Origin: a virus | Length of the DNA stretch: 24,359 nucleotides | Reading direction: 5' to 3' (one strand) | Virus record (IMG/VR): IMGVR_UViG_3300049811_000251 | Location: 1 to 24,359 of that record | Part shown: positions 186 to 24,137 of the stretch, piece after piece | How positions within the stretch are numbered: the first letter of the stretch is position 1 | Layout: every line of letters starts with the position of its first letter | The notes under the pieces: model-generated | Databases searched by the model: none | Told to the model about the DNA's origin: nothing | Seen by the model: only the letters and a program-made list of their open reading frames with translations | Position numbers and translations under genes: made by a program

Positions 186-219
186 CGGGTACACTGGGGA
201 TTTTTCCAATCGTTTGGAG

Positions 220-567
220 TCAGACTTCCACCAATTCCTTGGGGGTCTCAGCCGCCTTGGCGTTAGCGATCTCCGCCAACTGACCCGCGTACTTGACGAT
301 TTTCTTTTGGGCGACGGCGAACTGCTTGATGCTCAGCGGAAAATCGTACTTCCGCTGGTCCGGGTAGTCCATCCACCGCTGGATTTGCTCGGCGAAGGAC
401 GAAAGAATCGTGCTGTCGGCCCCGTTGAAGCCAACTTCGTTGTGGTACTTCGTGGCTTGCTGAAGTTGCTCGTCACGAGTCTGGCGAGAATAGATCGCCA
501 GCACGCCCTTGATGACTGCCCACCGATTAGTGGTGAGCAGTTCCTTAACCGCTTCCTTCGTCCACAT
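220..567 (-). CDS. conserved phage hypothetical protein
   Basis: 115 aa; motif AIYxRQTxDEQ...NxVGF recalled from phage hypotheticals; downstream of promoter 618-646. Confidence 0.8.
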   Translation of the reverse strand: MWTKEAVKELLTTNRWAVIKGVLAIYSRQTRDEQLQQATKYHNEVGFNGADSTILSSFAEQIQRWMDYPDQRKYDFPLSIKQFAVAQKKIVKYAGQLAEIANAKAAETPKELVEV

Positions 568-617
568 GATTGGATCTCCATGCTAGAGAGGGTGAAAGGC
601 ACGCAAGCGTTCCCCCG

Positions 618-646
618 AGTTTAATCGGAGGACGCTTGCGTGTCAA
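618..646 (-). promoter_or_regulatory. sigma70-type promoter TTGACA-N17-TAAACT, -10 in loop of an inverted repeat
   Basis: Consensus boxes; hairpin arms 600-618/625-642. Confidence 0.8.
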
Positions 647-663
647 GTCCACACGATTGGATT

Positions 664-1098
664 TTACTTGATCACTTTGGCCAAGTTGTGCAACTGGGCA
701 CAGATGATGGTGCCAGCGGGGAGCTTAAGCTCCTGTTCCAGCTCGGTTTCCTCGGAGACTTCGATGAGAGCGAAGAAAGTGCGCTTCTTGTTGAAGGGCT
801 GAATACGATTCTCGTATCCGATGATCTTGCCCAGGATGCCTGCCATCCAGATGACCTCCCCGCCTTCGATCCCAGAATCGTAGCAGGACTTTTGGAAGTC
901 CGTGTACTTCTGTCCGCGGGGGAAGCAGAAGCGGAAGACCCGGACCTGGCTCCCTAGACTGGGACGGTCGAACTGGCTAGCCGTGGTAGCCGCCGTAGTA
1001 GCGGGGCTGCTGGCGAACGCCGTGCTAGCGTTATTGAGCTTCCGGCGGAACGCCACTTCCTCGCAGAGTTTGGCGATCAGTTTGTCAGAGACTGGCAT
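664..1098 (-). CDS. hypothetical protein
   Basis: 144 aa, GGAGAG SD upstream of ATG. Confidence 0.75.
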   Translation of the reverse strand: MPVSDKLIAKLCEEVAFRRKLNNASTAFASSPATTAATTASQFDRPSLGSQVRVFRFCFPRGQKYTDFQKSCYDSGIEGGEVIWMAGILGKIIGYENRIQPFNKKRTFFALIEVSEETELEQELKLPAGTIICAQLHNLAKVIK

Positions 1099-1281
1099 CT
1101 TGGACTCTCCATTTTAGAGAGGGGGGTGAAGCGACAACCCCGAGAATAGAGCAGAGAGTTTCTTGCCAGTCAATAGGGGGGTACGCAAAAATCCCCGAGG
1201 CCAACTTTAAGGATAAACTTCTACTGCTACTCAGGCTCCAATCAATTGGACTACTGCTACTTCTCGCTTCGATCCATAAAG

Positions 1282-1313
1282 AAAGACAGATACGTAATAA
1301 CGTATCTGTCTTT
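1282..1313. terminator. intrinsic terminator (perfect 14-bp hairpin, possibly bidirectional)
   Basis: AAAGACAGATACGT-AATA-ACGTATCTGTCTTT right after stop at 1318. Confidence 0.75.
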
Positions 1314-1317
1314 TGTT

Positions 1318-1587
1318 CTAGTCCGCTTGCATCATAAGCAGATCGTGGGTAAGGTCTCCAGCGTCCCACTCCCCGCGGGAGGGGATGCTGCTGATGAATT
1401 CGTCGATCACGCGACGAACGTCTGCCTCGTCCAACTGCCAGAACTGGCAGATGGAGTTGATGGCGGTCTGCTCGCTCACGTCAGTGACGGGCTGGCCATC
1501 TCCATCCGTCACCGGACCCGGCATCACTCCCCGGTGCATGAGCACCAACTCCACGCACAGACACACGTCGTACTGAACTTCGTTCAT
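1318..1587 (-). CDS. hypothetical protein
   Basis: ORF track 1318..1620; ATG 1587 with GGGAG SD fits promoter 1626-1654 better. Confidence 0.7.
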   Translation of the reverse strand: MNEVQYDVCLCVELVLMHRGVMPGPVTDGDGQPVTDVSEQTAINSICQFWQLDEADVRRVIDEFISSIPSRGEWDAGDLTHDLLMMQAD

Positions 1588-1625
1588 GGAAAACTCCCGT
1601 GAAAGAGGCGTAAAGCACAACCCCC

Positions 1626-1654
1626 ATCGTAATCACACACTTCTTTAAACGCAA
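1626..1654 (-). promoter_or_regulatory. sigma70-type promoter TTGCGT-N17-TACGAT
   Basis: 17-bp spacer; same upstream module as promoter 2126-2154. Confidence 0.65.
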
Positions 1655-1723
1655 TAGTGTACAGAGGAATTTTTCCAACCGATTGGAGTCAACTGCTACT
1701 ACTTCTTCTAAGCGTGGTGATTA

Positions 1724-1752
1724 GAAAACGCACCGTGCTTCCACAGTGCGTT
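1724..1752 (-). terminator. intrinsic terminator
   Basis: AACGCACUGUG-GAAG-CACGGUGCGUU-UUCU after stop at 1759. Confidence 0.65.
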
Positions 1753-1758
1753 CACTTG

Positions 1759-2073
1759 CTAGAACATCTTCCAGAAGTCCACCCGCTCCATGTGATAGGG
1801 TTCCCCGTTCTGGCGGATGGGGCCGGTCCACGGCTCGCTGAGGTGGACCACGATGAAGTAGCGGCCCTGCTCGTTTTCGAGCGAGTAGGCGTACTCGACG
1901 CCCACGGACCGTTCGCTCAGCTTGATGACTCCCCACCCTCCCAGAATGGTGTGAAACAGGGGATGATGGTAGTTCCATCCCTCGTGATCCGGGATGATCG
2001 AAAACTCCAACTCGGTGGGCTGGAGGTCTCCCCACCCGTGTTCGATCATGTCGAGGAGCGTTTGCTTGGTCAC
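1759..2073 (-). CDS. hypothetical protein
   Basis: 104 aa, GTG start with GGAGG SD, lies between promoter and terminator. Confidence 0.75.
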   Translation of the reverse strand: MTKQTLLDMIEHGWGDLQPTELEFSIIPDHEGWNYHHPLFHTILGGWGVIKLSERSVGVEYAYSLENEQGRYFIVVHLSEPWTGPIRQNGEPYHMERVDFWKMF

Positions 2074-2125
2074 TGTAGTCCTCCCGTCAAGAGTCGTTCG
2101 GCGAAACCGTTCCGCCGGTTCCCAC

Positions 2126-2154
2126 AGTGTACCAAGGTACTTTTAGCGTAACAA
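2126..2154 (-). promoter_or_regulatory. sigma70-type promoter TTGTTA-N17-TACACT with extended -10 TG
   Basis: 17-bp spacer, TGn-TACACT. Confidence 0.7.
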
Positions 2155-2222
2155 TAGTGTACAAAAGAATTTTTGTCCACACGATTGGAGTACTCTGCTA
2201 CTACTTCTTACAGTGCTGAAAG

Positions 2223-2252
2223 AGACGCAACCGCTTTCACGGCTGCGTTTTC
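2223..2252 (-). terminator. putative intrinsic terminator
   Basis: ACGCAGCCG-UGAAAG-CGGUUGCGU hairpin right after stop at 2253. Confidence 0.55.
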
Positions 2253-2459
2253 TCACTTAGTCACTACGAGAAGAATGGAGAACACCTTCTCCTCGGTGGT
2301 GTAGTCCAAGCTGTACCTGCCTGGAGCACGATAGTCTACCCCGTGGTCTTCTCGCTGGATGCGAGTCAACAAACCCTTCTCTTGGAGCATCTCTCCAATC
2401 ATAGCTTGAAGCCTATCCCAGGAGGGAGTAAGCTTCGCTCCGGTGATGGTGATTGTCAC
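2253..2459 (-). CDS. hypothetical protein
   Basis: 68 aa, starts directly after upstream stop. Confidence 0.65.
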   Translation of the reverse strand: MTITITGAKLTPSWDRLQAMIGEMLQEKGLLTRIQREDHGVDYRAPGRYSLDYTTEEKVFSILLVVTK

Positions 2460-2460
2460 G

Positions 2461-3106: not shown

Positions 3107-3397
3107 CTAGCTCCAATCGGTTGGAGGACACTTGCTGACTCGAATCGACCCAACGTTTCTCCCGTTGGGATGCCTAACTTTGAGCCTACCCTTGAAGGGT
3201 AGCTCCACGTAGTACACGTACCCGTTATCCAACTTCCCCTTAGGGAAGCGGGCGAACCACTCCCCTAAAAGTTCGGCGAACTTGTACTGAGGTTCGCTCG
3301 ACTTGAGGAAGCCTACTTCCTTGGCACGCTTAGCCAAGGCGTCAATGGTTCGGAACTTACCCGTGGCTTCTTGCGTAAGGAACTCGGTCATTGTCAT
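3107..3397 (-). CDS. hypothetical protein
   Basis: 96 aa, GGAG SD, downstream of promoter 3439-3467. Confidence 0.75.
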   Translation of the reverse strand: MTMTEFLTQEATGKFRTIDALAKRAKEVGFLKSSEPQYKFAELLGEWFARFPKGKLDNGYVYYVELPFKGRLKVRHPNGRNVGSIRVSKCPPTDWS

Positions 3398-4216: not shown

Positions 4217-4594
4217 GCCCCCCAACTTCAAAAAAGCCAATCGTTTGGACCGCTCAGTACATCTGTACACTATAGGACACACAGTTACCCCCTAACCAGG
4301 TGTCTCTACTGCTTTTACTCCTACTTTCGGGGGTTCCCCCCCTTTTGGTTTTTTCAAGGAATTTTGGCGGGCTCCTAGGGGAAAACTGACCTATCCAAGG
4401 ATTTGGAGGGTCTATCTTACCTATCTTAACACCTACTCCCCCTGCTGAGTGGGAGACTGAAATATTATCTACTCCTAAATCTACTCAGTTACCCCTCCTT
4501 CTGCTTCGACTGTAGCGCTACAAACTCCTCCTAAAGTAGGGAGTCCCACCTGCTTTTACTACTACTTCTGGGTTAGTGTACATAAATTCTCAAG

Positions 4595-4660
4595 ACTACT
4601 GCTTCTTTGTACACTACTGTACATGATTTTTTCAAAACTACTGCTTCTTTGTACACTACT
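4595..4660. repeat. 24-bp direct repeat x2 within CTACT-rich tract
   Basis: ACTACTGCTTCTTTGTACACTACT at 4595-4618 and 4637-4660. Confidence 0.9.
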
Positions 4661-4920
4661 CCAATCAATTGGAGTCAAACTTAGCCTAGAACTGGGCCTA
4701 CTTCTAATCCTAACTCCTCTGTTAAACTATCTACTAGCCTAACTACTGACCGCTACTACTAAACTTTCTTAACTTTTTATAACTTCTACTATTTTTAGTG
4801 CTGTAACTAGCCCTACTACTTCTTCTTTTACTGAGACTACTACTAAAAAAATAGATGCTCCTGCTACTGAAACAGGGGCGTCTACTGCTATTTCTACTAC
4901 TAAAACTGCGAGAAATAAGC

Positions 4921-5205
4921 TCAAGACTTGATTATTTTGGCTGCAACCTTCTCTACAACTTCCGGCGGAAAGAAGATTTTAGCTGATCCAAGCAATTCCA
5001 CTACAGCATTTATACATTCATCTTCTGTTATATCTAGGTAATAATTGCGTCGAATTGACACAGCTTCTAGGCATAATCTTGCTAAATACTGCTCAGATTT
5101 TTGATTAAATTCCTTTCTGAGACGCAAATGAGCGTCTGAGAGCAAATTTGTGGGGTTTTGAAGGTCTGTTTTGTAGAATTTGTACAAAACTGCCATCTTT
5201 TTCAC
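4921..5205 (-). CDS. hypothetical protein
   Basis: 94 aa ORF, isolated in the non-coding region. Confidence 0.6.
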   Translation of the reverse strand: MKKMAVLYKFYKTDLQNPTNLLSDAHLRLRKEFNQKSEQYLARLCLEAVSIRRNYYLDITEDECINAVVELLGSAKIFFPPEVVEKVAAKIIKS

Positions 5206-5488
5206 CTAAAATGGGGTCCAATTGATTGGAAAATGTCGGTTTTCCGCCACTTTTTTGACTTCTTCTATCTTTCTCGTGTCTTTTTTGCGTACTCCAGCTT
5301 CTATTACTAAGTCTTAATCTACTACTAATTACTACTACTTTAACTAAAATTACTACTAAATCTCGAACTTAAAGAACTAAATTTTAACTATAAACTAACT
5401 ATAAGCACTTCTACACAAAACCTAAAAGTTCTCTGGGGGGGTCTCTCAGCTCACTGAATTAAAACTTCTTTACCTTCTAACTGACAAT

Positions 5489-5612
5489 AACAGTCGAGAA
5501 AAATCGAGTTCAACAGTCGAGAAAAATCGAGTTCAATAAAAACGAATCTTAAAATCGAGTTCAAACAGTCGAGGAAAATCTAGTTCAACAAATCTTAAAA
5601 ATCTAGTTCAAA
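5489..5612. repeat. iteron-like array, 5x AAAATC(G/T)AGTTCAA
   Basis: Copies at 5500, 5523, 5551, 5575, 5598. Confidence 0.9.
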
Positions 5613-5736
5613 GAGGGACTACGAGAAGTTTAAGTCTGGGTTCTACAAGTTCTATATCATATATACTATTAAAGAGTACGCAAAAACCCAAAACCAGGCT
5701 TTTTTTTTGTTTCATGATTTTTTTGTTTCTTGCTTT

Positions 5737-5955
5737 TTAAGTCCAATCAATTGGAGTGAAGTAAATATCTAATAACATGAATTTATTGATTTCTGGATTA
5801 TCGACTTTAACCATATATGTAGGATAATCATTAGTCTTAGAGTTCTTACTTACCTTAGTAATAGTGAACGCACCGATATTCAAGTGTTTTACTCCAAAAA
5901 CATCCATTAAACCCGTTTCATTAAACTTAACTCGATCTCCCACTTTTAGTTTCAT
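5737..5955 (-). CDS. small hypothetical protein (KVGDRV start, SH3/KOW-like)
   Basis: ATG 5955 preferred; palindromes at both ends. Confidence 0.7.
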   Translation of the reverse strand: MKLKVGDRVKFNETGLMDVFGVKHLNIGAFTITKVSKNSKTNDYPTYMVKVDNPEINKFMLLDIYFTPIDWT

Positions 5956-6047
5956 TTTTTTTATTCCAATCAATTGGAGGTTTAGTCTTGATCTAAAGGT
6001 TAAAAAATCCGTAAAATTTGACTAAATTTCAAATTTTTTGGTGTCAA

Positions 6048-6084
6048 TTGTTGTAACTCCTTATGTAGCAAGGACTTACGACAA
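6048..6084. repeat. imperfect inverted repeat, 15-bp arms with 7-bp spacer
   Basis: TTGTTGTAACTCCTT-ATGTAGC-AAGGACTTACGACAA, 13/15 arm match. Confidence 0.8.
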
Positions 6085-6126
6085 TCCTAGTTTTGATTTT
6101 ATAGTGATTAACTTATACAGCGATTT

Positions 6127-6465
6127 TTAGTCCCTTGACGACCTTGGAGTACTTTCCTCGAAGACAATTTGATAGATAGTACCGAAAGTTTTCTGCCGGG
6201 TAGTCCCAAAAGTCTCTCTTATCTTACGTCCTCTAAGGAGTTGTTGCACGCCAAACTGCAATCTTTGAGAGTAAGGGTCTTTAATCGAGAAATGATCCGC
6301 TAATTCTTGTGGAGTTGCAGAGTTTTTGAATACTTCCTTGAGTACCTTCAAGATTCTCCACTGAGAAATGTTTCCCTGTTCATCTGTCTCTTCACTTTTC
6401 TCACTAGAGGTTCTTGGTAGTAATGGAGGTAGTTCTGGTAACTGTTCATACCTATCTGTACTCAT
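6127..6465 (-). CDS. putative winged-HTH protein
   Basis: RILKVLKE...TPQELADHF...QQLLRGRKI pattern; start at ATG 6465 is uncertain. Confidence 0.55.
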   Translation of the reverse strand: MSTDRYEQLPELPPLLPRTSSEKSEETDEQGNISQWRILKVLKEVFKNSATPQELADHFSIKDPYSQRLQFGVQQLLRGRKIRETFGTTRQKTFGTIYQIVFEESTPRSSRD

Positions 6466-6523
6466 TCCTTTATTCCTATAAAGGGGAACGCAAACAGCCA
6501 CTTGAAAACCCGCGAAATTCCAA

Positions 6524-6787
6524 TCAATTGGATTCTTTATCCCATTCAAGGTATCTATTGAATTTTTCGTGCTGACGCTCAGCCATTCTATTAGCGTCTA
6601 ACTTAAGCTTGTATTGAACGAAGTAGCAGATAGCCATAACATCTGCCATTTCGTCTTCAAGTCTCTTAGTTAGATCACCTTTGTTATCAGGGTGTTGAGA
6701 ATCTGGGTACGCAAGCTTTTTCCCGACAACCTGCGTAAGCTCACCCATTTCCTCGATTAGTTTAACCAGTCCCTGAGCAACCATCAT
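6524..6787 (-). CDS. MazG-like NTP pyrophosphohydrolase
   Basis: KLIEEMGEL...LEDEMADV (EEXXE...EXXD) motif. Confidence 0.8.
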   Translation of the reverse strand: MMVAQGLVKLIEEMGELTQVVGKKLAYPDSQHPDNKGDLTKRLEDEMADVMAICYFVQYKLKLDANRMAERQHEKFNRYLEWDKESN

Positions 6788-6789
6788 GC

Positions 6790-7074
6790 TTATGCCTCCA
6801 AAGGATAGACTACTCCAAGAGTCTGTAAAAGCATTGAGATATACTCTCTGTGCGTAGGTATGTAGCTATTTCTATCATCATAGATAATAGCGTCATCTTG
6901 CTTAATTACTAAGCAAGTCTTGTCGTTTTTGGATAAACTGTCAACCTGAATAGTTTTTCCAGCTTTAGTAGAACAAGACAGTCTCATCTTGTCCACTCCA
7001 TCAATATACTCCTTGGTATCCCACGGAAAGTTAAGTAACCACAGAGGAGTTACTACATCATATGAGGCTTTCAT
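6790..7074 (-). CDS. hypothetical protein
   Basis: 94 aa, ATGA overlap with upstream gene. Confidence 0.65.
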   Translation of the reverse strand: MKASYDVVTPLWLLNFPWDTKEYIDGVDKMRLSCSTKAGKTIQVDSLSKNDKTCLVIKQDDAIIYDDRNSYIPTHREYISMLLQTLGVVYPLEA

Positions 7075-7535: not shown

Positions 7536-8220
7536 CCCTATCCACTGCTTTCCAAAGTTTTCTCTGGGGGTCTAGTTGTGAGTCCTCCACACGGACTACT
7601 TTAACTAAACGAGTAGCAGCCATCTTATTTGGGTCTTCGGTTCTAATGTAGAATGGCTGTGGGAACTTAGGAGGTTCTAAACTAGATGGATTGCACGCAC
7701 CGACTTCAAATTCGGCCTTATCTTTCAGAATAACCTTATCATACCAACTTTTATCCAGAGTAAGAGCTTGTAATCTATCCACTAATTTAACGAGCACAGG
7801 AGAGTAACTGTCTACAAGTTCCTTTAGAAACTCCGCAGCTAGAGATTTCTTATATGAAAATTCTTCAATCATTGGAACATTGGCTACCATAGGAGCGTTA
7901 GCTAAAACTTCATCAACGTACCCAGATTCATACTCCTCTGGCGAGAAAAGAGGCTCATCAATAGCTTTAAGGATGTTTTCCTTAGTCTTTTCAGATTCTA
8001 AGAATCTGTTAAGGTGCTGATCTGCGTTGTTAAAGTCAATCAGCCATTCTTCAAATTTTCCTCCTTGTTGAAGGTCTTTCCAAGGTGCAACATCTCCATT
8101 CAAGTGGAGTCCATCTACGCCATCACTCTCGTCAATGAGATTATTGACGCTAGCGAATCCTTGGATGATTTTATCAAAGAGTTCTTTAGGGAGTTTCATT
8201 TCTTCCATCATCATCCACAT
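7492..8220 (-). CDS. phage hypothetical protein
   Basis: 242 aa; ESDGVDGLHLNGDVAPW motif recalled from phage hypotheticals. Confidence 0.7.
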   Translation of the reverse strand: MWMMMEEMKLPKELFDKIIQGFASVNNLIDESDGVDGLHLNGDVAPWKDLQQGGKFEEWLIDFNNADQHLNRFLESEKTKENILKAIDEPLFSPEEYESGYVDEVLANAPMVANVPMIEEFSYKKSLAAEFLKELVDSYSPVLVKLVDRLQALTLDKSWYDKVILKDKAEFEVGACNPSSLEPPKFPQPFYIRTEDPNKMAATRLVKVVRVEDSQLDPQRKLWKAVDRDGVHYYFSEWQYSA

Positions 8221-8399
8221 CCTTCCGTTACTTCGTGTTCATCTTTCCAGCCAGTATCAACAAGATACTGAGCGGCCTTACCGTACTCTTCCGCCAGAAG
8301 ATCATTAGAACGTTGAAGTTCTTCTTTAATGCGTTTTCTGCACTCAGTCAACGCAGTTTTGGGATACTTGGTAGTCAGGTACAGTACAATGTCGATCAT
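8211..8399 (-). CDS. hypothetical protein
   Basis: ATG 8399 with GGAGAG SD from palindrome 8407 removes the long overlap in the track. Confidence 0.55.
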   Translation of the reverse strand: MIDIVLYLTTKYPKTALTECRKRIKEELQRSNDLLAEEYGKAAQYLVDTGWKDEHEVTEGCG

Positions 8400-9235
8400 T
8401 CTACTCTCCAAACCATTGGATATTTCTTTTCTCGAAGTAAAAACGACGCAATATGTTCTTCCGTAAGTAAGACTATCTGCCAGCCGTAAAGTTGACAAAA
8501 TTCATACACGGCTTTCTTTACTCCAACTCCCCAAGGCTCATCGCAGAAGTCATGTCCTGTAATTAGACCTCCAGGAACCACTTTATCTTTAAGCAACGCA
8601 AGTTCATCTCGTGTTACTTCATAACCGTGATCGCTGTCAATGTAAACCCAGTTTAGTGATTCGTTAGGTAAAGACTTAAGGAATGGCACTGAGTAGGAAC
8701 GCACAATTTCAACATTGGTCCTACCTTCAAATCGTGCCAGCACTCCATTATATGTTTCTTCTCCGGTTTCCTGAAACCAGGAATCTGCGTCTGGAGATTT
8801 TTCCCAATCCCACCTATCAACGAGATACAGCTTGTGAGGCTTGGTAATGTTCAGCAATTGTTCAGCGTTAGAACCTTTGAAGACGCCCAACTCAACGCCA
8901 ATACTACCCTTAGGGAACAGTTTATACATATCTTCCCGAGTTAGGCAGTTTCTTCCAAAGTTTGGCTCGGGGTCTTGTTTCAAAGATAGTCCGTAAAGAT
9001 GAGTCTCGAAACATTCTTTCAAATGCTGTAATTCCTTAGTGCTTCCTGAGTTAATCTTATACACTGCACCATCAGTCTTAGCAATTTGAAAAAACGCATC
9101 CCCGAGAAGAAACCTTCCGACTTCCGCATCAGTTTCCCTAAGGTTGACAGTTACTCCAAAACCCTTGCTAAGGAATTCTACAAGGGTATCAAGAAGCTCG
9201 CTAGATACGTACCACATGCTTTTGGTTCCAATCAT
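8396..9235 (-). CDS. class I SAM-dependent methyltransferase (Methyltransf_24-like) with N-terminal extension
   Basis: GVELGVFKG, LYLVDRW, VYIDSDHGYE, PGGLITGHDF motifs. Confidence 0.85.
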   Translation of the reverse strand: MIGTKSMWYVSSELLDTLVEFLSKGFGVTVNLRETDAEVGRFLLGDAFFQIAKTDGAVYKINSGSTKELQHLKECFETHLYGLSLKQDPEPNFGRNCLTREDMYKLFPKGSIGVELGVFKGSNAEQLLNITKPHKLYLVDRWDWEKSPDADSWFQETGEETYNGVLARFEGRTNVEIVRSYSVPFLKSLPNESLNWVYIDSDHGYEVTRDELALLKDKVVPGGLITGHDFCDEPWGVGVKKAVYEFCQLYGWQIVLLTEEHIASFLLREKKYPMVWRVE

Positions 9236-9435
9236 TTGGAGTTTTTGACGACTTCCACATCAATCTCGGCTTGGATTAACGCATTAGTTAATCCATTTTT
9301 CATCAAACGCACCGCTTCGCGGGCAAAACTTGAAGGAAGACCCATAGCTTTTTTGTGTGCAACTATTTTATCAATAGTGCGAATTATCCATTGATCTTCT
9401 TCAGGAACCGAGATCGTTCTTAGCATTTGTTTCAT
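9232..9435 (-). CDS. putative ribbon-helix-helix protein
   Basis: RTISVP strand followed by two helices. Confidence 0.6.
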   Translation of the reverse strand: MKQMLRTISVPEEDQWIIRTIDKIVAHKKAMGLPSSFAREAVRLMKNGLTNALIQAEIDVEVVKNSK

Positions 9436-9601: not shown

Positions 9602-9603
9602 AA

Positions 9604-9676
9604 GGCCAACAGAGGGACTCGAACCCTCAACCTGTTGATTACAAGTCAACTGCTCTACCAATTGAGCTATGTTGGC
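9604..9676 (-). tRNA. tRNA-Thr(UGU)
   Basis: Cloverleaf GCCAACA/TGTTGGC, anticodon loop CTTGTAA, TTCGA T-loop; no encoded CCA. Confidence 0.95.
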
Positions 9677-10435: not shown

Positions 10436-10895
10436 TTTTATCCAAACAATTGGAGTTTATCTTAGCCAATTCCAACTTTTTCTTGATTTGTCGTCGGCTT
10501 GTCTTAGGAGTTTTTCCTAATTTTCTATTCTCGTTAGCTTGAGGAAAAACGTAATGAAAAGTACGAATCTTCTTACAGATAGTGCTTAAAGCCTGACATA
10601 GAACACTTTTAATGTTTTCATCTTTAACGTCAGACTCAAAAACCTTAAAACTAATTCCATAGAGTCTGTACTTTAAGCAACCTCCTACGTCGTTACCTCT
10701 ATCTATTAGTAAGTAAGCGTCCTTGTCCGCAGTATCCACTTCATTAGGATGATGAACTGCTTTTGATTCGCAGTGTGTGTATAAAATCAATCTACCTTCG
10801 ATTGTAACATCAATAAACTTAGAATACTTACTTTTGTAGAATTTAACGGATAAGTCCCTATTTCCTAGTTCTTTGACTATTGATAGAATGTCCAT
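10419..10895 (-). CDS. hypothetical protein
   Basis: 158 aa in operon. Confidence 0.65.
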   Translation of the reverse strand: MDILSIVKELGNRDLSVKFYKSKYSKFIDVTIEGRLILYTHCESKAVHHPNEVDTADKDAYLLIDRGNDVGGCLKYRLYGISFKVFESDVKDENIKSVLCQALSTICKKIRTFHYVFPQANENRKLGKTPKTSRRQIKKKLELAKINSNCLDKNEKNL

Positions 10896-11739: not shown

Positions 11740-11785
11740 CTTCAAAGTCCAATTAGTTGGAGGAAATTAGTAAACTTTTAGTCAG

Positions 11786-13917: not shown

Positions 13918-14331
13918 CTAGCACAAGGATTCTAAGAAAGCTCCAATTGTTTGGAGTTCCTTTGCGTTTTTCTCAAACGCAGGATCGAAGAACCCGTATT
14001 CTCCGCGTTTCTGGTTCTCCAAAAAGACACGCACCTTTTCCAGCGTTTCCTTGTAATTCTTTACAGCATCTAAGGCTGGAAACTTAGTTCCCTTCGGAAA
14101 CAGTATAGACTTTACTCTGTAATCCGAAGTAGGTAAAAGGTACTCTACTTCAAGGATTTCCTTTTCCAGGATTAACTCATCCAAGGCGAGGAAGAAATCT
14201 TCTTTCGTAGAGGGAGTCAGAGAATCAGCACTTGTGTTGCTGCTAAACTTCGCGGCTAATTCCGTAGCCTTAAGAGGCCCCTCGTTTTGAACGATTTCTT
14301 TGATGATTCGCTTAGTTTTTTCGTTACTCAT
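13918..14331 (-). CDS. putative winged-HTH protein
   Basis: GPLKATELA...ALDELI..KEI; similar to neighbour. Confidence 0.7.
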   Translation of the reverse strand: MSNEKTKRIIKEIVQNEGPLKATELAAKFSSNTSADSLTPSTKEDFFLALDELILEKEILEVEYLLPTSDYRVKSILFPKGTKFPALDAVKNYKETLEKVRVFLENQKRGEYGFFDPAFEKNAKELQTIGAFLESLC

Positions 14332-15115: not shown

Positions 15116-15126
15116 GGTAACTCCAA

Positions 15127-15294
15127 TCAAATGGACAACCCTGAGAGAATGTACAACAGTAAAACTAAAATAAGTACAACACGTACTAACTTGAAAAACT
15201 TTGCACGATACCTAGTATTAAACAAGGTATCAGACGCTAACGCCAATCCATACACTGCTAAAATTACAGCAATTCCACTAAGAACGTCCTGCAT
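15127..15294 (-). CDS. small membrane protein, 55 aa (not in track)
   Basis: Two hydrophobic segments around a basic loop; fills the gap. Confidence 0.6.
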   Translation of the reverse strand: MQDVLSGIAVILAVYGLALASDTLFNTRYRAKFFKLVRVVLILVLLLYILSGLSI

Positions 15295-15556: not shown

Positions 15557-15591
15557 GTCCGTTAGCCTTTTGTAAATCCATTCTGTTGGAG

Positions 15592-16522: not shown

Positions 16523-16826
16523 TTGTGGACTCCAATTGATTGGAGGAGCGTTTTCCTTGCTTCAACTCTTTTTCGATATTTCGTTGAACCATGTTCCCTG
16601 CAATCTTTTGCAGGTTGTGAATCTGAATATCCGACAGCGAAGGGAAGAGTTTCTTGAGGCCAATAGAGACAGCCTTGGCCCTCTTACTTACAGCCGACGC
16701 TGCGTCGGCTTCATCCTTAGTAGTAAAGACTTGAGTGTACTTCTTACTCACAGCCTCCATCAAAGGAAGCTCTTCAATTTTTCCACTATCACTGACGCAG
16801 AATACCTGCATTTCTTGAATTTTCAC
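16494..16826 (-). CDS. hypothetical protein
   Basis: 110 aa in operon. Confidence 0.65.
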   Translation of the reverse strand: MKIQEMQVFCVSDSGKIEELPLMEAVSKKYTQVFTTKDEADAASAVSKRAKAVSIGLKKLFPSLSDIQIHNLQKIAGNMVQRNIEKELKQGKRSSNQLESTNEENQKTAE

Positions 16827-17152: not shown

Positions 17153-19654
17153 CTACTTCCTTGTTCCCGAGACACTTTTGATGATACGCAGGAAGAGACG
17201 CTTCATGTCAACCACCAACTTACTCATGTCCGTAAAGTGAAGCACGTTTTCCTTGCCATACATAGCCTCGGAGTTCATCCGGTCTTCAATGGCAATTTGA
17301 ATAACGTGTGTCCCACTCTTGCGGATTTTGGTAACTTCCTTTTTCACCAAAGTCTCGGCGTCGTACTCACCTAAGCACCCGCAGGGTGCTCCATCCGAGA
17401 TAATGATGATAAGCTTGTTTTTCTGTTGAGTTTTTTCCTTGAGGAGCCTGTTAGCTGTTGCTAACGCCATGTAGTCGAAGTTACCATCCATCTTCTCCCC
17501 GTAAGCTCCAATCGAATGGAGTTGAGGATTATCTTTCCCGTGTAGATACTGCATCCTGTTAGTGTCTACGCCGTTCCCATAATCACTGGTGAATGAGTAA
17601 ACTTCCAACTCGATACCTTGGATTTTCTGAACAGCCTCCACCATGCAAATTGCTGCTTTGAGGCAGTTAGAGTCCTTAGTGCTTGAACGCATACTCCCGG
17701 ACTCATCCAAGAGTAAGGCAATGGCAATGCCAGTCTCAACCTTAGTGTAATTACGCTTGAAGATTTTGTCCGTGACCGCTGCTTTTCCGAGCATCTTACG
17801 GTCTAGACGACCTTCGATGAGTTCCCTCTCGGAGAAATCCCGTTTTCCAACACGAATCTGTCGGAAAGCTTGCTGCATTGCAGCAATGTCATTCTTGATG
17901 CTTTGAAGTGCTCGAAGGTACTTCGACTTTCGTTGTTCCGTCACTTGGGGGTGAATTAAGAACGTTCTAGTAGGATTAGACGTACCTTCCGGCTTCCAAT
18001 CCTGAGAGAGTTGCCATCGCTCGTTTTCCATCTGAGCAAGGTTGAAACTTTCTCCAACCGTCAGACAGTTTCGAGTCAAGTCTAGATTATCTACCATGTG
18101 CTTCAAATCTTGGAGGGTGAACCGACCCTCCTTGATTCGTTTCTTGAGAAGCCCCATGAATAGATCATGTTCTTTCTCGATCTTTTCTTCCAAGTTTTTC
18201 AGCTTAGAGTTAGATTCGTGTTCCGACACGTCCGTCTTACTTGCCGCCTTGGTATAGGCGTCAATCAAAGACTTAAGGTTATCCGTGTGTTTCTTTATCG
18301 TCTCAACGTCATCCCTTAGAAGTTCTTCCTCGTTAGCCTTCAAGCGATTCTTCGCAAGCTCCGTGGGGTCCAATTGATTGGAGTCTTTTTGTTCAGTAGT
18401 GGACGGTAGTTCACCAACCCTTTCGGGTGAATCCGTAGCGCTAGGAGAACCCGCCACATCAGGGGAGTTTGTAGCGCTAGAATCCGGGGGTGCGGAACCG
18501 CCCGGTGAACCGCCGGCCCCTGGAATGCCGTTGTCGATCTCCGGTTGACTCGCAGACGCTTCCGAACCATCGTCAGGTGCAGAGATACCCCCACCCGCCC
18601 CAGGCTGCCCAGGGGCGTTTATCGAGGGTGGTTCGTTCGGGGGGGTGGACGGTTGTTCAGTAGTAGGTGAACCACTACGAGAAGATTGGCTGCCACTTTG
18701 ACCTTGTACTCCAGTCGGTCCATTCGATTGGAGTTTTTGTTGTTCCTGCTTTTGTTGTTCTTGCTTCAGTTTTTCCAAGGCCAAAACTTCAGCAGCAGTA
18801 GCAGCCTCGGAGTCCTTCATATCGGCTAGACGCCGCGTCTCGTCTAGTACATAGTACGCAATAGCCAGCCCGAACTTTTCGACTTCCAACTCATCAATGG
18901 GAAGCCTAGGCACAGCTTTGCAGAACTCTTCAAACGGGCAACTACCCGTTAGAGTCTTCCAAGTCTTCATTTCCTCAGTGATTAGGTACGCAGACCTAAT
19001 GTACGCAAAACTGAGGGAAGTAAGCTTGGTGTAATCGGAGCAGGGGACCATCAGGGGGTCTAACGATTCTTGAGACCACCGCTGCAAGATTACCCCAACA
19101 TCATCTTTCTCGAAGAGTTCTCTCTTAGAGATAGTGATGTAATCCTGGAATCCTGGAGAAGTCTTTACAAGTTCTCGCTCGATTCGTTCATCTTCCAACA
19201 AGCCGATGTACAACTTTTCTACGGGAGAGTAGGCTCCATCCTTAAGACGCTTGTAGTGATACCTGGTGTTCAGAATATGGGAAGCTTCGTGTAAGCCTAC
19301 CCCACAGTAAACATCCAGTACCTTATCTTGAGACAGCCGCTCAAAAACGCCAGCGTCTAGGTAAATCTTGGGCTTTTTCCAAACTCCAATGTCGTCAAAC
19401 ATGGCACAACCCATGCCGAACGACTCCAAGTCTGCCAACTCGACAGGACATTCCTTAGGAAGTCCATGCACGAGGAGCAAGTTTCTTACCGTGTCTCTGA
19501 TGGTAAGAAGCTCGTACAGACGGTTTTTGTGGTGACTTTTTCCAGAGTACCCAACCTCCCACTTGCTAGAGTCTTGAATAATCTCCTTATTCAAGACTCT
19601 ATCCAAGCTATCCGAGAGATAGGTAAGGGTTTCTTTGTAATACTGGGAAGACAT
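17153..19654 (-). CDS. CobT/NorD-like vWA protein: HExxH N-domain, disordered linker, vWA domain
   Basis: LHEASH...LEDERIE; GRLDRK; MIDAS DESGSM; ISDGAP. Confidence 0.9.
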   Translation of the reverse strand: MSSQYYKETLTYLSDSLDRVLNKEIIQDSSKWEVGYSGKSHHKNRLYELLTIRDTVRNLLLVHGLPKECPVELADLESFGMGCAMFDDIGVWKKPKIYLDAGVFERLSQDKVLDVYCGVGLHEASHILNTRYHYKRLKDGAYSPVEKLYIGLLEDERIERELVKTSPGFQDYITISKRELFEKDDVGVILQRWSQESLDPLMVPCSDYTKLTSLSFAYIRSAYLITEEMKTWKTLTGSCPFEEFCKAVPRLPIDELEVEKFGLAIAYYVLDETRRLADMKDSEAATAAEVLALEKLKQEQQKQEQQKLQSNGPTGVQGQSGSQSSRSGSPTTEQPSTPPNEPPSINAPGQPGAGGGISAPDDGSEASASQPEIDNGIPGAGGSPGGSAPPDSSATNSPDVAGSPSATDSPERVGELPSTTEQKDSNQLDPTELAKNRLKANEEELLRDDVETIKKHTDNLKSLIDAYTKAASKTDVSEHESNSKLKNLEEKIEKEHDLFMGLLKKRIKEGRFTLQDLKHMVDNLDLTRNCLTVGESFNLAQMENERWQLSQDWKPEGTSNPTRTFLIHPQVTEQRKSKYLRALQSIKNDIAAMQQAFRQIRVGKRDFSERELIEGRLDRKMLGKAAVTDKIFKRNYTKVETGIAIALLLDESGSMRSSTKDSNCLKAAICMVEAVQKIQGIELEVYSFTSDYGNGVDTNRMQYLHGKDNPQLHSIGAYGEKMDGNFDYMALATANRLLKEKTQQKNKLIIIISDGAPCGCLGEYDAETLVKKEVTKIRKSGTHVIQIAIEDRMNSEAMYGKENVLHFTDMSKLVVDMKRLFLRIIKSVSGTRK

Positions 19655-19682
19655 GCTGCACCGTTCGTAAAGCGTTACCCGT

Positions 19683-19711
19683 ATTTTACCAGCACGCTTC
19701 TAGGGTGTCAA
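19683..19711 (-). promoter_or_regulatory. sigma70-type promoter TTGACA-N17-TAAAAT (extended -10)
   Basis: Consensus boxes upstream of the vWA gene. Confidence 0.8.
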
Positions 19712-20535
19712 CGGGCATTTTTGGATTGTGAAAGATACCGTTCAGTATCTTCGAGAAAATGCTGGAACATATCCTTGAGTTCCTTGTTGATTTTCTCCAA
19801 GTCCCTGATCCTTCGATCTTGCTTACTGGTGCGTTCCATCAAGATGTTAAGCTGATTCCAAATCTTGATGGACTCGTCAGAACGTCCATTCGATTGGACA
19901 TTCTGAAGGGGAGTCTCAACCACAACCTGAGGATTTTCTACCTCTGGTGACTCGACCGGAGATTCGAGTTTCTTGAGAACCTTTTGAATCTCAAGATTCA
20001 GAGTCTTACCAGCGTACTTACCAGTCAACTCAAGAAGGAGTGACTTAGTGGCTTGAGACAGATCACTACTCTCGAAGAGATGGATGTGAGGGAAAATCCT
20101 AGAGTAGTAATCTGAGTACTCGTCATTCAGGATGCCAGCGTTCTGTAGAGTAGTGGCAACCTTGAGAATCTTACAGTAAGCACTGTAAGAAAGATCGAGG
20201 TACTCCCCTAAGTATTGAGATTGTCTAATCATCAAAGTTTTCCACGGCTTGGAGTCCGCAACTCGCAAAATCGTGGAAAACTTACTCTGATCCGCAAGAC
20301 TGATAAGCTCTTCCCCGAACTCAGAGGTTTCGACTTCCTCCAGTTCTTCGGAGTCTTCCTTGTAGAAGACACCTTCTTTACTCAGTGCCCCTTTCAGATT
20401 CTTCTCGGAGATAAAGCAATCGAGATACTCGACTGCCCTATCAAGAATTTCCGAATACGTCTTGCGTTCCAGGAGATTCTTGTTGTCCTTGACCCACGTT
20501 TGGAGTTTCAGCAGTTGAACTTTTGTCAGCCTCAT
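19708..20535 (-). CDS. putative HTH / coiled-coil protein
   Basis: N-terminus similar to 20441..20842; C-terminal heptads RIRDLEKINKELKDMF. Confidence 0.75.
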   Translation of the reverse strand: MRLTKVQLLKLQTWVKDNKNLLERKTYSEILDRAVEYLDCFISEKNLKGALSKEGVFYKEDSEELEEVETSEFGEELISLADQSKFSTILRVADSKPWKTLMIRQSQYLGEYLDLSYSAYCKILKVATTLQNAGILNDEYSDYYSRIFPHIHLFESSDLSQATKSLLLELTGKYAGKTLNLEIQKVLKKLESPVESPEVENPQVVVETPLQNVQSNGRSDESIKIWNQLNILMERTSKQDRRIRDLEKINKELKDMFQHFLEDTERYLSQSKNAR

Positions 20536-20842
20536 CGGTCAGTGCCTTAACGATGGAGTATAGAGTAGCAACTTGTTCCTCTAGTTGCTCAATTCGGAAT
20601 TCCAAGGATTCCTTAGAGCCTTTAGTGTAAGACCTTGAATACTTCTCAGATTTGAGAATGATTCCTAGAGTACCTGCCAACTTACTGACATTGTGCTCCG
20701 AGATAGGAAATTTCAGGAAGTCGGAGGCTTCTTTACAAACCTCTTCGACAGTGACTGATCCTTGAATCCGTTCTCGATTGGCTGTAAGGTAGTTAGCCAA
20801 TCCAATCGTTTGGAGTGTGCTAAGTCTGTTTCTGGTAGTCAT
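20441..20842 (-). CDS. putative HTH / coiled-coil protein
   Basis: TVEEVCKEASDFLKFPISEHNV; RIEQLEEQVATL. Confidence 0.75.
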   Translation of the reverse strand: MTTRNRLSTLQTIGLANYLTANRERIQGSVTVEEVCKEASDFLKFPISEHNVSKLAGTLGIILKSEKYSRSYTKGSKESLEFRIEQLEEQVATLYSIVKALTDEADKSSTAETPNVGQGQQESPGTQDVFGNS

Positions 20843-20849
20843 TGGATTC

Positions 20850-22412
20850 CTACGGGTTTTTCTTTTGGATCAACTGGAAGATTTTCGACCGATCCGAAGC
20901 TTCAGCACCATCGTTACTGAAGTGATTGGCAACGCAGAACTTCAACGCATCCTTAATGGAAATGCCGTTGACGATCTGCTTTGCCACGGCAAGAAGCATA
21001 CGAGTACTGACATGCCTCGTAAAGTCGCCTTGCAGCTTCATAGTTCTCTGATCGTTAGCGAAGTCCACCAGCTTGGACGCCACAGCCGTCTTCAACTGGG
21101 GATAACGCCCCATCAGAATCTTCATTTCCGGTTCTTTGGGAGGGAACTCAACGTCGATCACAACGTCGAACCGATCCTCCAGAGCCACGTCTAGAGCTTC
21201 CGTACCAGAGTACTCGGACCCTAGGTTTGCCGTAGCGATGAACGTCGCTCGTTCACCCTTCTTGATGATAGGAGAGGTTTCGGACTCATCAAGAGCCAAG
21301 TAACCTTGCCTATCCAAGAGCGGCAGTAGAATGTTGTACGCAGCCGGCCCTGCTCGGTTGATTTCATCCAGCAGAGCACAACCATTAGCTTGCTGAACAG
21401 TTCTCACGAACCTGGATTCAGCAAACCAAGTACCTTTCTCCTTGTTGAAGTGAGTATTTCCGATAAGACTGGCCCGAGGTTCTGACATGGCTCCGAAGTT
21501 AAAAGCTTCGAGCGTCAGTCCCAAGGTTCTAGCTGCGATGTAAGCCAGTTCAGACTTACCCTGTCCGGCAGGTCCGGTCAGAAGAACGTTTCCGCCTTCC
21601 GCCAAACAGTACAGAATCTGCCGCCAGTTGCTTTCTAGAACGTAGAACTCCGTAATCGCAGGAAGCTTCGCAGTCTTCCACGGAAGAACCGGAGCATGAA
21701 CTGCCGGAGCAGAACTTCCCGAGAGATTCGGAGCAGAGGCTTGAGCAGGCACAGACTCGTCCAGGTTGAAGATTTCTTTCAGCCAAGGGCTGAGAGATTT
21801 CTTTTGAATAAACCCCGGACTAGCCCCACTCAAAATTTCCACTGAGGTAACAGTGGCCCTCTTTTGATACGCAGACGTGAGCCTGTCGAACAGGTAGTTC
21901 ACGTCTAAACATAGTTCTCCGTTTTTCGGAGCATCTTCGATAGCACGAGTGCTACCGAACTTGAGCAGATGGTTAAACTGCTCCACGTCCAGCGGTCCAA
22001 CCTCAGGCGAGAGAAGTGCGTACTTGGGATTGTCCTTGAGGGGAAAATGGAGACCGACACACTGCATGACTGGAACACTCGCATCAGTCCAGTTGATTGG
22101 AGTTTCCAAGTCAAGAAAGACTTCCGTCGAGATCAACTTTTCTCGGAACGGAGTTTTCAGGATTTGAACGTGCTCACACTCCGACCGCCCAACCCTCCCC
22201 AAGGGACAGGTGCAAGAGAACTTGCCTGACGAAGCATCGTGCGTCAAAGAGTAGGAGAGGGACACTTTGTAATCTGAGAGCACCATAATCACGAACTCGT
22301 TGTGACGAGTCTTGAAAATGGAATAATAGCGATCTTTTGGGGAGGGTGGCATCGTACTCTCCGAGGATGTTGGATGTGCCGTCATTTTACCATGACGGCT
22401 AGTTAATCGCAA
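20850..22412 (-). CDS. SWIM-finger fused MoxR-type (CobS/CbbQ-like) AAA+ ATPase
   Basis: CTC...CEH; Walker A GPAGQGKS; Walker B LLDEINR; FIATAN, LEDRF, STRML. Confidence 0.92.
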   Translation of the reverse strand: MRLTSRHGKMTAHPTSSESTMPPSPKDRYYSIFKTRHNEFVIMVLSDYKVSLSYSLTHDASSGKFSCTCPLGRVGRSECEHVQILKTPFREKLISTEVFLDLETPINWTDASVPVMQCVGLHFPLKDNPKYALLSPEVGPLDVEQFNHLLKFGSTRAIEDAPKNGELCLDVNYLFDRLTSAYQKRATVTSVEILSGASPGFIQKKSLSPWLKEIFNLDESVPAQASAPNLSGSSAPAVHAPVLPWKTAKLPAITEFYVLESNWRQILYCLAEGGNVLLTGPAGQGKSELAYIAARTLGLTLEAFNFGAMSEPRASLIGNTHFNKEKGTWFAESRFVRTVQQANGCALLDEINRAGPAAYNILLPLLDRQGYLALDESETSPIIKKGERATFIATANLGSEYSGTEALDVALEDRFDVVIDVEFPPKEPEMKILMGRYPQLKTAVASKLVDFANDQRTMKLQGDFTRHVSTRMLLAVAKQIVNGISIKDALKFCVANHFSNDGAEASDRSKIFQLIQKKNP

Positions 22413-22870
22413 GCAGGTTCCAGGAAAAAAGCAAAAGAATTTTTCCTGATACTAACAGACCAAACTATCTTGAGTAAATTCGGAGGAACTACTTCCTTGG
22501 GAAGTTGAATAGTTACTCCTGTAACTACCTCAGGCATTTCAGAAAAATCCAACTTTACTGGTTCAGGAATCCCCAAAACCGAGACTAACTTCTCGATGGT
22601 TCTTTCATATAGAACCTCCGCTTCGTTCTTAGAGATTCCCGTGGTGAATGGCTCTTTCTTGTTAAGCATCTTAAGATGCTTGCATTTTCGGAACTTGCTG
22701 TAGCCTAGACAGGTGCAACTTGTGCCCGCTGTCATAATGTACATCTCAGTCCTAGTCACTTGCTCAGATTTTTCTAACTTCGAGCAAGTAACGCCGGTCG
22801 CATCTTTCTGAAAAACGTAAACGGGGAATTCAACTAATTGTTCTAGTTCTCTTACAAATTTTGTCTTCAT
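22403..22870 (-). CDS. SWIM zinc-finger protein
   Basis: CTCLGYSKFRKCKH; ATG 22870 with AAGGA SD. Confidence 0.8.
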   Translation of the reverse strand: MKTKFVRELEQLVEFPVYVFQKDATGVTCSKLEKSEQVTRTEMYIMTAGTSCTCLGYSKFRKCKHLKMLNKKEPFTTGISKNEAEVLYERTIEKLVSVLGIPEPVKLDFSEMPEVVTGVTIQLPKEVVPPNLLKIVWSVSIRKNSFAFFLEPACD

Positions 22871-22901
22871 GGGAAAAGTCCTTAAAAGAGAGATTTTTAC
22901 T

Positions 22902-22943
22902 AAAAACAACTCCCCCGAGTCCATTCGATTGGACTCGGGGGAG
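22902..22943 (-). terminator. intrinsic terminator whose hairpin top is the palindrome
   Basis: CUCCCCCGAGUCCA-AUCGAA-UGGACUCGGGGGAG-UUGUUUUU. Confidence 0.75.
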
Positions 22944-22970
22944 CTAGTGTCAATCAGGTGCCTACGAGGC

Positions 22971-24005
22971 TCACGAGGCCGCTGGAACTTCGACAGTCCC
23001 GCTTTGGGCCTCGATCTGTGCCAGAAGCGAAGGGTCCATCTCCTTGACTTCCAGCTTCACCTTGAAGGCCCGTTCGACGCTCTGGATGATGTAATCCAGG
23101 CGAGCCAGGACTCCACCAGCCGAGGCCGAAGCGTTGCCGGCGAGGTACTCCGTGCAGATGGTGTCGAGGAGAGTACCAGGCTCCTGAGACCCCGTGAATT
23201 CCTGAGCCACCTGCATGGCGGAGTTGATATTCTCCGACTGGGCAGGAGTGACTCGGAACTTGAGAGTGGAAAATTCCTCCTTTTCCCCGGCTTCCGCAGG
23301 GGCCGAGGAATCTCCCGAACCCTCATCCGACCCGGCAGCCTTCGTTTCCTTGGGCGGTTTCCCTTCCTTGGAGCGAACGTAGGCTTGAACCTGAGGAACG
23401 CTCATGGACTTGGTAGCGTCCAGAACTTCCAGAACGTTTTCAGGCGTAACGATCCGGGTGAGCTCCTTCGCCTTCGACCATTCCAGGTCTTTCAGGTGAT
23501 CCGCCGAGAGCTTGCACTCCACGACGAACTTCTTGTAGATGCCCTTGAGGTAGTGGGCCATCGACTTTTTCATGTTATGCTCGACGAGGCAGTAGTCCTC
23601 GAACGTAGCATAAGGCATGTTCGTGTTCGGGTTGATCCACTCCTTGTGGTAGCCGTTTTCGGCCACCTCGTAGAGCATCTCACCCGCGACCAGCTTCAGC
23701 CGGTCGTCTGCGGTTGAAACCTTCTTGAGAACTTCCCGAACCGCCTCCCGACGCTCCGTCGGGGTCATACCCGAATGAAGCATATTCGGGACGAAGATGC
23801 TTCCGCCCAGTTCTTCCTGAACCAGGGCGAGGCTCGTACCAGCGACGAACACCGGCTCCTTCGGAGCTTCGGGGGCGTCTTCCTTTTTCTTGCCGCGGCT
23901 GGCCTTCTGGGGGGTCGCGGGGGTTTCGGGGGTGAGGAGTTCTTCAGCCATCTCGTCATTCACTCCAATCAATTGGCGGTCGATTTTCTTCAGAAAGTTC
24001 GCCAA
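22971..24005 (-). CDS. putative DNA-binding protein (DUF3102-like)
   Basis: GEMLYEV....YH...FEDYC...MKKSMAHYL..IY...LEWSKA; start may be ATG 23951. Confidence 0.75.
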   Translation of the reverse strand: MANFLKKIDRQLIGVNDEMAEELLTPETPATPQKASRGKKKEDAPEAPKEPVFVAGTSLALVQEELGGSIFVPNMLHSGMTPTERREAVREVLKKVSTADDRLKLVAGEMLYEVAENGYHKEWINPNTNMPYATFEDYCLVEHNMKKSMAHYLKGIYKKFVVECKLSADHLKDLEWSKAKELTRIVTPENVLEVLDATKSMSVPQVQAYVRSKEGKPPKETKAAGSDEGSGDSSAPAEAGEKEEFSTLKFRVTPAQSENINSAMQVAQEFTGSQEPGTLLDTICTEYLAGNASASAGGVLARLDYIIQSVERAFKVKLEVKEMDPSLLAQIEAQSGTVEVPAAS

Positions 24006-24047
24006 GTTTTCTGAAGGCGGTGGCGAAACATTCGCCGTTGTTCCCGC

Positions 24048-24076
24048 ATTTTACCCAAACGCTTTCCCGAATGCAA
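24048..24076 (-). promoter_or_regulatory. sigma70-type promoter TTGCAT-N17-TAAAAT
   Basis: Palindrome 1 bp upstream of -35. Confidence 0.75.
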
Positions 24077-24137
24077 GTCCAATTGTTTGGAATTTTTGAG
24101 GTTTCTAGCACCGGGATTTCGTTTGGGGTATGCCGGT

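Follow-up and report, generated by a model that had tools for sequence, protein, structure and literature searches.

What is a 14-bp palindrome doing at almost every kilobase of a phage genome, much of the time within genes? The question is raised by the IMG/VR virus record IMGVR_UViG_3300049811_000251, of which the first 24,359 nt (the window, meaning the whole stretch of DNA that was analysed) contain 31 exact copies of TCCA-N6-TGGA between positions 205 and 24091. The complete genome of this uncultured phage, a circle of 102,151 bp of which the window is the first 24 kb, contains 94. These sites form a lattice that is spaced more evenly than chance, that recurs throughout the phage family in lineage-specific sequence, and that surrounds the gene at 22971–23951, whose DUF3102-like product is very probably the protein that binds it. 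An earlier, sequence-only reading of the window had proposed that the palindrome is the site of a dimeric protein marking the whole genome, an idea to which the lattice, together with a modelled dimer, now lends support.

Number, spacing and placement of the sites

The sequence-only reading had counted 31 exact and two near sites against about 0.4 expected; counts and coordinates were reproduced, with dinucleotide shuffles of the window giving a mean of 0.40 and a maximum of 2, and the near sites (4236..4249 and 23964..23977) having one mismatch each. It had also warned that the enrichment might vanish in shuffles or that host DNA might carry the motif at similar density. In the open reading frames (ORFs) of the whole genome, 59 sites were observed compared with 3.5 after synonymous-codon shuffling with amino acids fixed and 1.5 after codon-order shuffling, and 61 Gemmatimonadota genomes, sampled with the phage host not identified, held 0–1 exact sites each, loose matches reaching 15–16 in two metagenome-assembled genomes (MAGs) of 6.6–8.6 Mb. 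Spacer lengths other than N6 gave 0–9 matches each across the phage genome, and the motif extends over about 16–18 bp with an information content of about 21 bits.

None of the 94 sites is a perfect palindrome. The hexamer ATCGAT is purged from the genome (0 compared with about 21 expected), as are 26 other 6-bp palindromes, and the centre of the site is probably degenerate because of this avoidance; the sites of the relatives G001 and G006 likewise break those central hexamers that their own genomes avoid. Restriction-site avoidance is extreme over the whole genome, with GCGC reduced to 6% of its expected frequency and 27 of the 64 6-bp palindromes nearly absent, and the sets avoided by the relatives differ from one another. 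Occurrence in both orientations, as first described, holds for the core but not for the flanks, which in the source genome are polarised with transcription (p<0.001): on the coding strand, C stands on both sides of the core at 22 sites and G at 5, and the non-coding sites behave likewise. This bias may reflect avoidance of an extended RNA hairpin and of an internal GGAG, or a true polarity. The flanks have no polarity in 15 of 18 genomes, the source genome being polarised and two others weakly so.

The sites are not scattered at random. An interval of roughly 0.75 kb had been proposed; it is close to the 0.80 kb of the window, which is the denser part, and falls short of the 1.09 kb of the whole genome. 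The coefficient of variation (CV) of the gaps over the whole genome is 0.57 compared with 0.98 for random placement, none of 20,000 simulations was as even, and short and long gaps are both depleted; the evenness holds against a null that keeps the coding and junction classes. Across the family the CV ranges from 0.16 to 0.67, with p<0.05 in 16 of 18 genomes at any density, the class-matched null included. In the source genome the early region has 1.6 sites per kb and the structural genes have 0.6.

Around 24% of the sites are no more than 20 bp from a start codon compared with 4.7% expected, and about half lie deep inside coding sequence, where they fall in parts of the protein that are somewhat less conserved (mean percentile 0.40, p 0.03). 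As genes and promoters were called with simple scripts, these class counts are approximate. Within the window, the suggestion that many sites lie inside ORFs is borne out for 12 of the 31, wholly within called coding sequence (14 with longer ORFs), most others being at junctions or in non-coding DNA. The absence of sites from the two introns of the window is true but uninformative, a site-free stretch of about 1.3 kb being expected by chance roughly 1 time in 5. Only 3 of 25 strong sigma70-like promoters in the source genome are preceded by a site at a distance of 50 bp or less (1.6 expected), and with the other 22 lacking a site just upstream, a classic operator regulon is unsupported.

In the first part of the window, the site at 205..218 lies 19 nt upstream of a −35 box at 185 and that at 648..661 lies 1 nt upstream of one at 646, while the intergenic sites at 1674..1687 and 2176..2189 cover a promoter-like −35 region and overlap a weak −35 match, respectively. 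A further intergenic site is found at 1237..1250, and those at 4394..4407 (with a degenerate core) and 4660..4673 are non-coding. Start codons follow the sites at 5217..5230 (about 20 nt on), 5965..5978 (10 nt), 6519..6532 (54 nt) and, after tRNA-Lys, 11748..11761 (9 nt); the site at 561..574 overlaps the start of ORF 220–567. Sites at the 3′ ends of ORFs or coding sequences are seen at 3112..3125, 8407..8420, 10441..10454 and 16531..16544, with the next start 9, 8, 6 and 9 nt on, as well as at 5742..5755 (ORF 5737–5955) and at 13942..13955, ahead of the intron-containing tRNA-Leu. The sites at 9227..9240 and 15122..15135 mark gene junctions and that at 15577..15590 immediately follows tRNA-Met. 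Deep in coding sequence lie 8095..8108, three sites in the vWA gene (17507..17520, 18369..18382 and 18719..18732) and 19885..19898 in the coding sequence 19708–20535; the 5′ part of ORF 20441–20842 holds 20801..20814, and the MoxR-type AAA gene holds 21064..21077, with a degenerate core, and, in its 5′ part, 22088..22101.

Related phages and the candidate binding protein

Relatives were gathered through the capsid protein and the gene at 22971–23951, which yielded 17 other genomes or loci with a variant of their own. Each carries a single type of dispersed 14–16-bp palindrome with this geometry, and in 15 of the 17 its spacing is more even than random. The TCCA-N6-TGGA variant is found in L130, G025, G027, G035 and G036, most other relatives have TGCA-N6-TGCA with genome-specific cores, and further variants occur in G001, G003 and G004, the core of G003 being parS-like (CACGTG) and that of G004 resembling the Noc-binding site (NBS; CCCGGG). 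The syntenic G001 has no TCCA sites and 23 of its own type. Among cultured phages, DLP5, SM1 and L338C carry 31, 30 and 47 exact sites of their own type and Vibrio Ares1 about 25 copies of a looser variant, and the hosts of the lattice phages span Pseudomonas, Stenotrophomonas, Rhizobium and Vibrio. Inside genes, there are a few positions where a site is retained at identical or neighbouring codons by genomes whose motifs differ, every genome using its own version; what selection acts on is therefore the site in the DNA.

Scanning viral contigs for the exact pattern returned matches that were mostly due to chance. A seven-site cluster in G037, an unrelated T4-like phage, was rejected as a lattice, being a coding repeat in tandem leucine-rich genes, and Gemmatimonadaceae were not accepted as the host, the sole basis being a 2.7-kb related contig binned in a MAG. 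Eight dispersed, identical and perfect TCCA-N6-TGGA palindromes with the core AGTACT were seen in the Bryobacterales chromosome OZ252030.1 (loci L271 and L272), where they perhaps belong to a mobile element or are a host motif. No description of the site lattice, or of DUF3102 in phages, was found in the literature covered, most subscription journals lying outside that coverage.

The gene at 22971..23951 (minus strand) encodes 326 aa from an ATG at 23951, the ORF being open from 24005, and has a GC content of about 58%. A sigma70-type promoter, recognised by consensus match only, lies at 24048..24076 (minus strand; −35 TTGCAT, 17 nt, −10 TAAAAT), and a terminator-like hairpin, as read from the sequence, lies 3′ of the gene at 22910..22943 (minus strand). 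The gene is flanked by sites: that at 24078..24091 lies 1 nt upstream of the −35 in an autoregulatory position, the near site at 23964..23977 occupies the ribosome-binding site, and that at 22920..22933 forms the top of the hairpin. In 10 of 16 genomes the 150 bp upstream of the homologue include a site, which ranks third among 44 gene families (median 9%), and six further loci also have one upstream. In the cultured phages DLP5, SM1 and L338C the homologues are gp066, gp050 and gp074, respectively. The homologue, which belongs to a family of 2,046 clusters at E≤1e-10, adjoins recombination or replication genes in all relatives viewed. It is one of six genes present in all nine lattice genomes tested, together with RecA, helicase, polymerase, primase and a 105-aa protein, and its product is the only helix-turn-helix (HTH) protein common to the nine.

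The protein is assigned to phrog_17202 and is DUF3102-like. It is predicted to have a ParB/KorB/Noc-type HTH DNA-binding domain at about residues 80–215 of the 344-aa ORF, a helical N-terminal region and a C-terminal dimer region, the N-terminus of the AlphaFold2 model being largely of low confidence and unstructured. Searching with this model in Foldseek returned the DNA-binding domains of Spo0J, ParB-parS, Noc-NBS, KorB and SopB (probability 0.6–0.97, E>0.4), and VIA gave 1vz0 at Z 8.1, with a root-mean-square deviation of 4.0 over 107 residues, and KorB (1r71) at Z 6.4. In profile searches with 93 family members, HTH_ParB matched one weakly and DUF3102 matched 12; no match to the cytidine triphosphatase (CTPase) domain ParB_N was found in the protein, and the arginine-patch pattern was found in 0 of 171 family members. 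The predicted homodimer scored 0.71 against 0.00 for the best control. Among solved pairs, 20 of 30 attain this mark, as does 1 of 23 single chains, and the model runs had at least 76% contact agreement with a predicted local distance difference test score of at least 73.

Several candidate binders had been named in the sequence-only reading, and it is the DUF3102-like protein that stands out through its distribution, ParB-type fold match and flanking sites. The ribbon-helix-helix (RHH) protein at 9232 is present in only three of the nine test genomes, homologues of the HTH or winged HTH ORFs at 6127 and 15278 turned up in no more than two relatives, and these candidates were rejected, along with the ORF at 9401, for their patchy distribution. 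Binding of the palindromes by the 22971–23951 protein is thus highly probable, and its model would make it a DNA-binding dimer of the ParB/KorB/Noc type that lacks the CTPase.

The site variants also follow the recognition helix in part. All 16 proteins of the Arg type at position 148 with a known site have G at half-site position 2, and TCCA sites are found only with Ser at this position, in two lineages, namely the source clade and G036. These two cannot form one clade (approximately unbiased test, p 2e-89); G036 groups with DLP5, from whose sites its own differ by that G/C pair only. By sequence comparison, the TCCA variant arose at least twice, each time with an Arg-to-Ser change in the recognition helix. 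An Arg-guanine contact is the known specificity contact in ParB (PMC7383237), and position 148 might correspond to the residue that makes it.

Known systems and competing explanations

Among known systems, KorB, which has 12 OB operators on the IncP plasmid RK2 (PMC11790492, PMC13768133), is similar in its ParB-type HTH, in 16-bp palindromes scattered over the replicon, in autoregulation and in positions kept between relatives, with some sites 4–10 bp upstream of −35 boxes and others far from promoters. Such placement is matched at the phage gene's own promoter and in the pooled genomes, whereas in the source genome the strong promoters mostly lack it. KorB differs in having a CTPase clamp, in sliding, in needing KorA or TrbA and in serving partition too; the phage protein has no CTPase domain, the phage encodes no ParA, and the sites number up to 100, evenly spaced and half of them in genes. 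Noc sites are dispersed over the chromosome. Noc-NBS and ParB-parS share the DNA-binding fold, 16-bp palindromes with a central CG, and a specificity switched by few residues (PMC7383237), but differ in that the phage protein has no CTPase domain, no ParA is involved, and the sites lie on the phage genome with no clustered centromere. A centromere cluster of the ParABS type was not seen, the sites being dispersed more evenly than random. The system may thus resemble KorB-OB and Noc-NBS in fold and site geometry, yet it stands outside the CTPase family and ParABS.

The analogy first offered, to the stoperators of L5 and cluster A mycobacteriophages, survives in part: there, one protein made by the phage occupies upwards of 20 sites on its own genome, at promoters and elsewhere (PMC9283540), as the lattice protein probably does. 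Stoperators are, however, intergenic 13-mers without symmetry that bind a monomer and follow the direction of transcription, whereas the lattice sites are palindromes, often deep in coding sequence, with a predicted dimer of another fold, and most promoters are site-free; KorB-OB or Noc-NBS is the better analogy. The closest published phenomenon is that of cluster O mycobacteriophages, with 34 symmetric 17-bp palindromes, about a third of them in genes and few near promoters, of unknown function (PMC4351075). Dispersed palindromes on a phage genome therefore have precedent, although the cluster O repeats differ in sequence and phage group, are concentrated at one genome end and have no identified binder.

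ParB, Noc and KorB load at few sites and slide as CTP clamps, and CTP-defective KorB acts only beside its site (PMC11790492). From the missing CTPase domain, it is inferred that the phage protein does not spread; it would dock as an HTH dimer on the palindromes and, unlike ParB and KorB, could not slide from one loading site, so that about 100 static, evenly spread sites would substitute for sliding. Numerous sites at even intervals are in keeping with a protein that has to be positioned at every point where it acts. Bound in this way, it may coat the intracellular chromosome and organise it by compacting, bridging or positioning it while it replicates or resides as an episome, and could also repress at promoter-abutting sites, its own promoter above all. 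This combination of static coverage with autoregulation and some promoter control is tentatively preferred, and if the pairing of protein and site is granted, the organising role becomes somewhat the more probable account. It is favoured because of the even spacing at any density, the sites deep in coding sequence, the family-wide symmetry and the poor overlap with promoters, and it fits better than a classic operator regulon given how few strong promoters have a site.

A number of results weigh against this account of the protein or of its role. The top VIA match of the model is Raf1 (Z 9.5), ParB-type scores being middling, and a sequence search of the PDB with the protein gave no significant match. 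Two further widespread uncharacterised proteins (105 aa and 266 aa) remain binder candidates, and in 6 of 16 genomes the homologue has no site within 150 bp. A rule that Ser at the recognition helix predicts TCCA, set down before testing with four advance predictions, failed as a general rule for P0019, which has a TGCA site; P0023 and P0032 gave no clear outcome, and the Arg case P0005 was consistent. G010 and G012 are exceptions as well, Ser being insufficient, and the form that survives in the sequences compared is that Arg is never paired with TCCA. The ParA profile PF13614 had no match in the genome, with the control positive in 14 of 14. In the pooled genomes, sites are enriched 4–13 nt upstream of −35 boxes (13 compared with 1.7), L338C largely being the driver, and in 9 of 13 genomes the region before the head operon is enriched as well, findings that point to transcription control.

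These last two observations lead to the strongest competing explanation, in which the same protein and sites would silence transcription genome-wide through promoter repression and elongation roadblocks, as stoperators or KorB do, so that a lysogen that has not integrated stays silent or late genes stay off, and the lineage-specific sites would act as immunity types. It is a serious possibility, if not the expected one. The autoregulatory layout at the 22971–23951 gene speaks for it, as do sites 1–45 nt upstream of −35 boxes, akin to the proximal OB class from which CTP-defective KorB still represses (PMC11790492), and the density peak in the early region. DLP5 lysogenises as a phagemid (PMC5834331), DLP3 forms stable lysogens and VHS1 is extrachromosomal, and neither an integrase nor ParA was found in the source phage genome; roadblocks would favour even coverage too. 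Silencing is, however, at odds with the site-free strong promoters and with the scarcity of sites over core promoters in the pooled data. The L5 stoperators are asymmetric, oriented and intergenic (PMC9283540), in contrast to the symmetry seen in most lattice genomes, and the junction enrichment may stem merely from lower coding cost and from GGA as a ribosome-binding site.

It is improbable that the lattice is a self-mark, by which the HTH protein would recruit another activity to phage DNA only, or shield it from nucleases, the partners proposed being a ParB_N helper with a glycosyltransferase cluster, the packaging machinery or the neighbouring MoxR/vWA chaperone. Such a role would suit a site of about 21 bits that is nearly absent from the sampled bacterial genomes. 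A ParB_N gene stands beside sugar-transfer genes in the source phage and in 12 of 15 genomes, heavy modification has been reported for DLP5 DNA, and ParB-dependent phage DNA-modifying enzymes have been described (PMC13229309). Against it, the lattices of G001, complete G036 and complete Ares1 occur without ParB_N, and a split ParB, with HTH and ParB_N on separate proteins, was for this reason rejected as the general purpose. The MoxR, vWA and SWIM genes are confined to the closer clade, gp62, the homologue in DLP3, is missing from the 21 proteins detected in virion preparations (PMC7326821), and strong purging of 6-bp restriction sites suggests that the DNA is still exposed.

Least likely of the rivals is that the sites serve a host factor (a LacI-type regulator or a host ParB or Noc), another phage protein, methyltransferase or restriction targets, or RNA hairpins: the AANCGNTT core resembles LacI-family operators, the outer CCA-N6-TGG is a BstXI-type site and the motif can fold as a 5-bp hairpin, but variants of the same geometry occur in phages of all four host genera, from one close relative to another the motif changes along with the HTH helix of the phage protein, sampled bacteria hold next to no sites, and 21 bits with a conserved core are unlike a methylase target.

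Genome context and significance

The source is a tailed phage with a 139-nt terminal overlap and nearly all genes on the minus strand, and it encodes PolA, UvsX, DnaB, primase and terminase. Within the window, tRNA-Arg and tRNA-Leu carry group I introns at 12030–12722 and 13205–13912 (minus strand), each with an HNH-like ORF; the Rfam Intron_gpI scores of 47.8 and 25.8 bits fall just below and well below the gathering value of 50. Directly downstream of the HTH gene, at 17153–22924 (minus strand), are SWIM-like, MoxR-type AAA ATPase and vWA genes, a block kept in the close clade and not found in DLP5, SM1 and L338C. Tandem small RHH-like genes follow tRNA-Thr at 9232–9661 (minus strand) and are conserved in several close relatives; by analogy, and speculatively, these could be KorA-like co-regulators. 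About five copies of a 23-bp repeat occupy an AT-rich non-coding stretch at 5466–5611 and are possibly replication-origin iterons, a reading suggested by the lambda O-like protein and DnaC-like loader among the genome's products. The GC content is about 55% in the early cassette region (window 1–2300) compared with 33–45% at 4500–9000. Beyond the window, 10-bp and 15-bp tandem arrays are found at L005:6720–7343 (genome about 96.7–97.3 kb), in a gene-poor, GC-rich stretch near the genome junction, and L003:6656–16975 (genome 64.6–75 kb) holds a ParB_N gene followed by glycosyltransferase, radical SAM and amino-sugar genes, adjoining terminase.

Extended to the lineage, the coverage reading would be that tailed phages of 80–110 kb organise their chromosome by a CTPase-less ParB derivative on a lattice written into essential genes, with static coverage replacing CTP-driven spreading and switchable specificity separating co-infecting relatives; this larger claim is possible but is held with considerable reserve. 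If true, it would be a phage chromosome-organisation system without a described equivalent. A large uncharacterised phage protein family gains a concrete, testable DNA target, and selection on DNA-level marks is strong enough to mould coding sequence every 1–6 kb. The natural site variants form a series for the study of specificity change in the ParB fold, and orthogonal, non-spreading DNA-labelling pairs are a possible spin-off. The cultured phages DLP5, SM1, L338C and Vibrio Ares1 open to bench work the question of whether phages that do not integrate can silence, segregate or organise their DNA with neither ParA nor an integrase.

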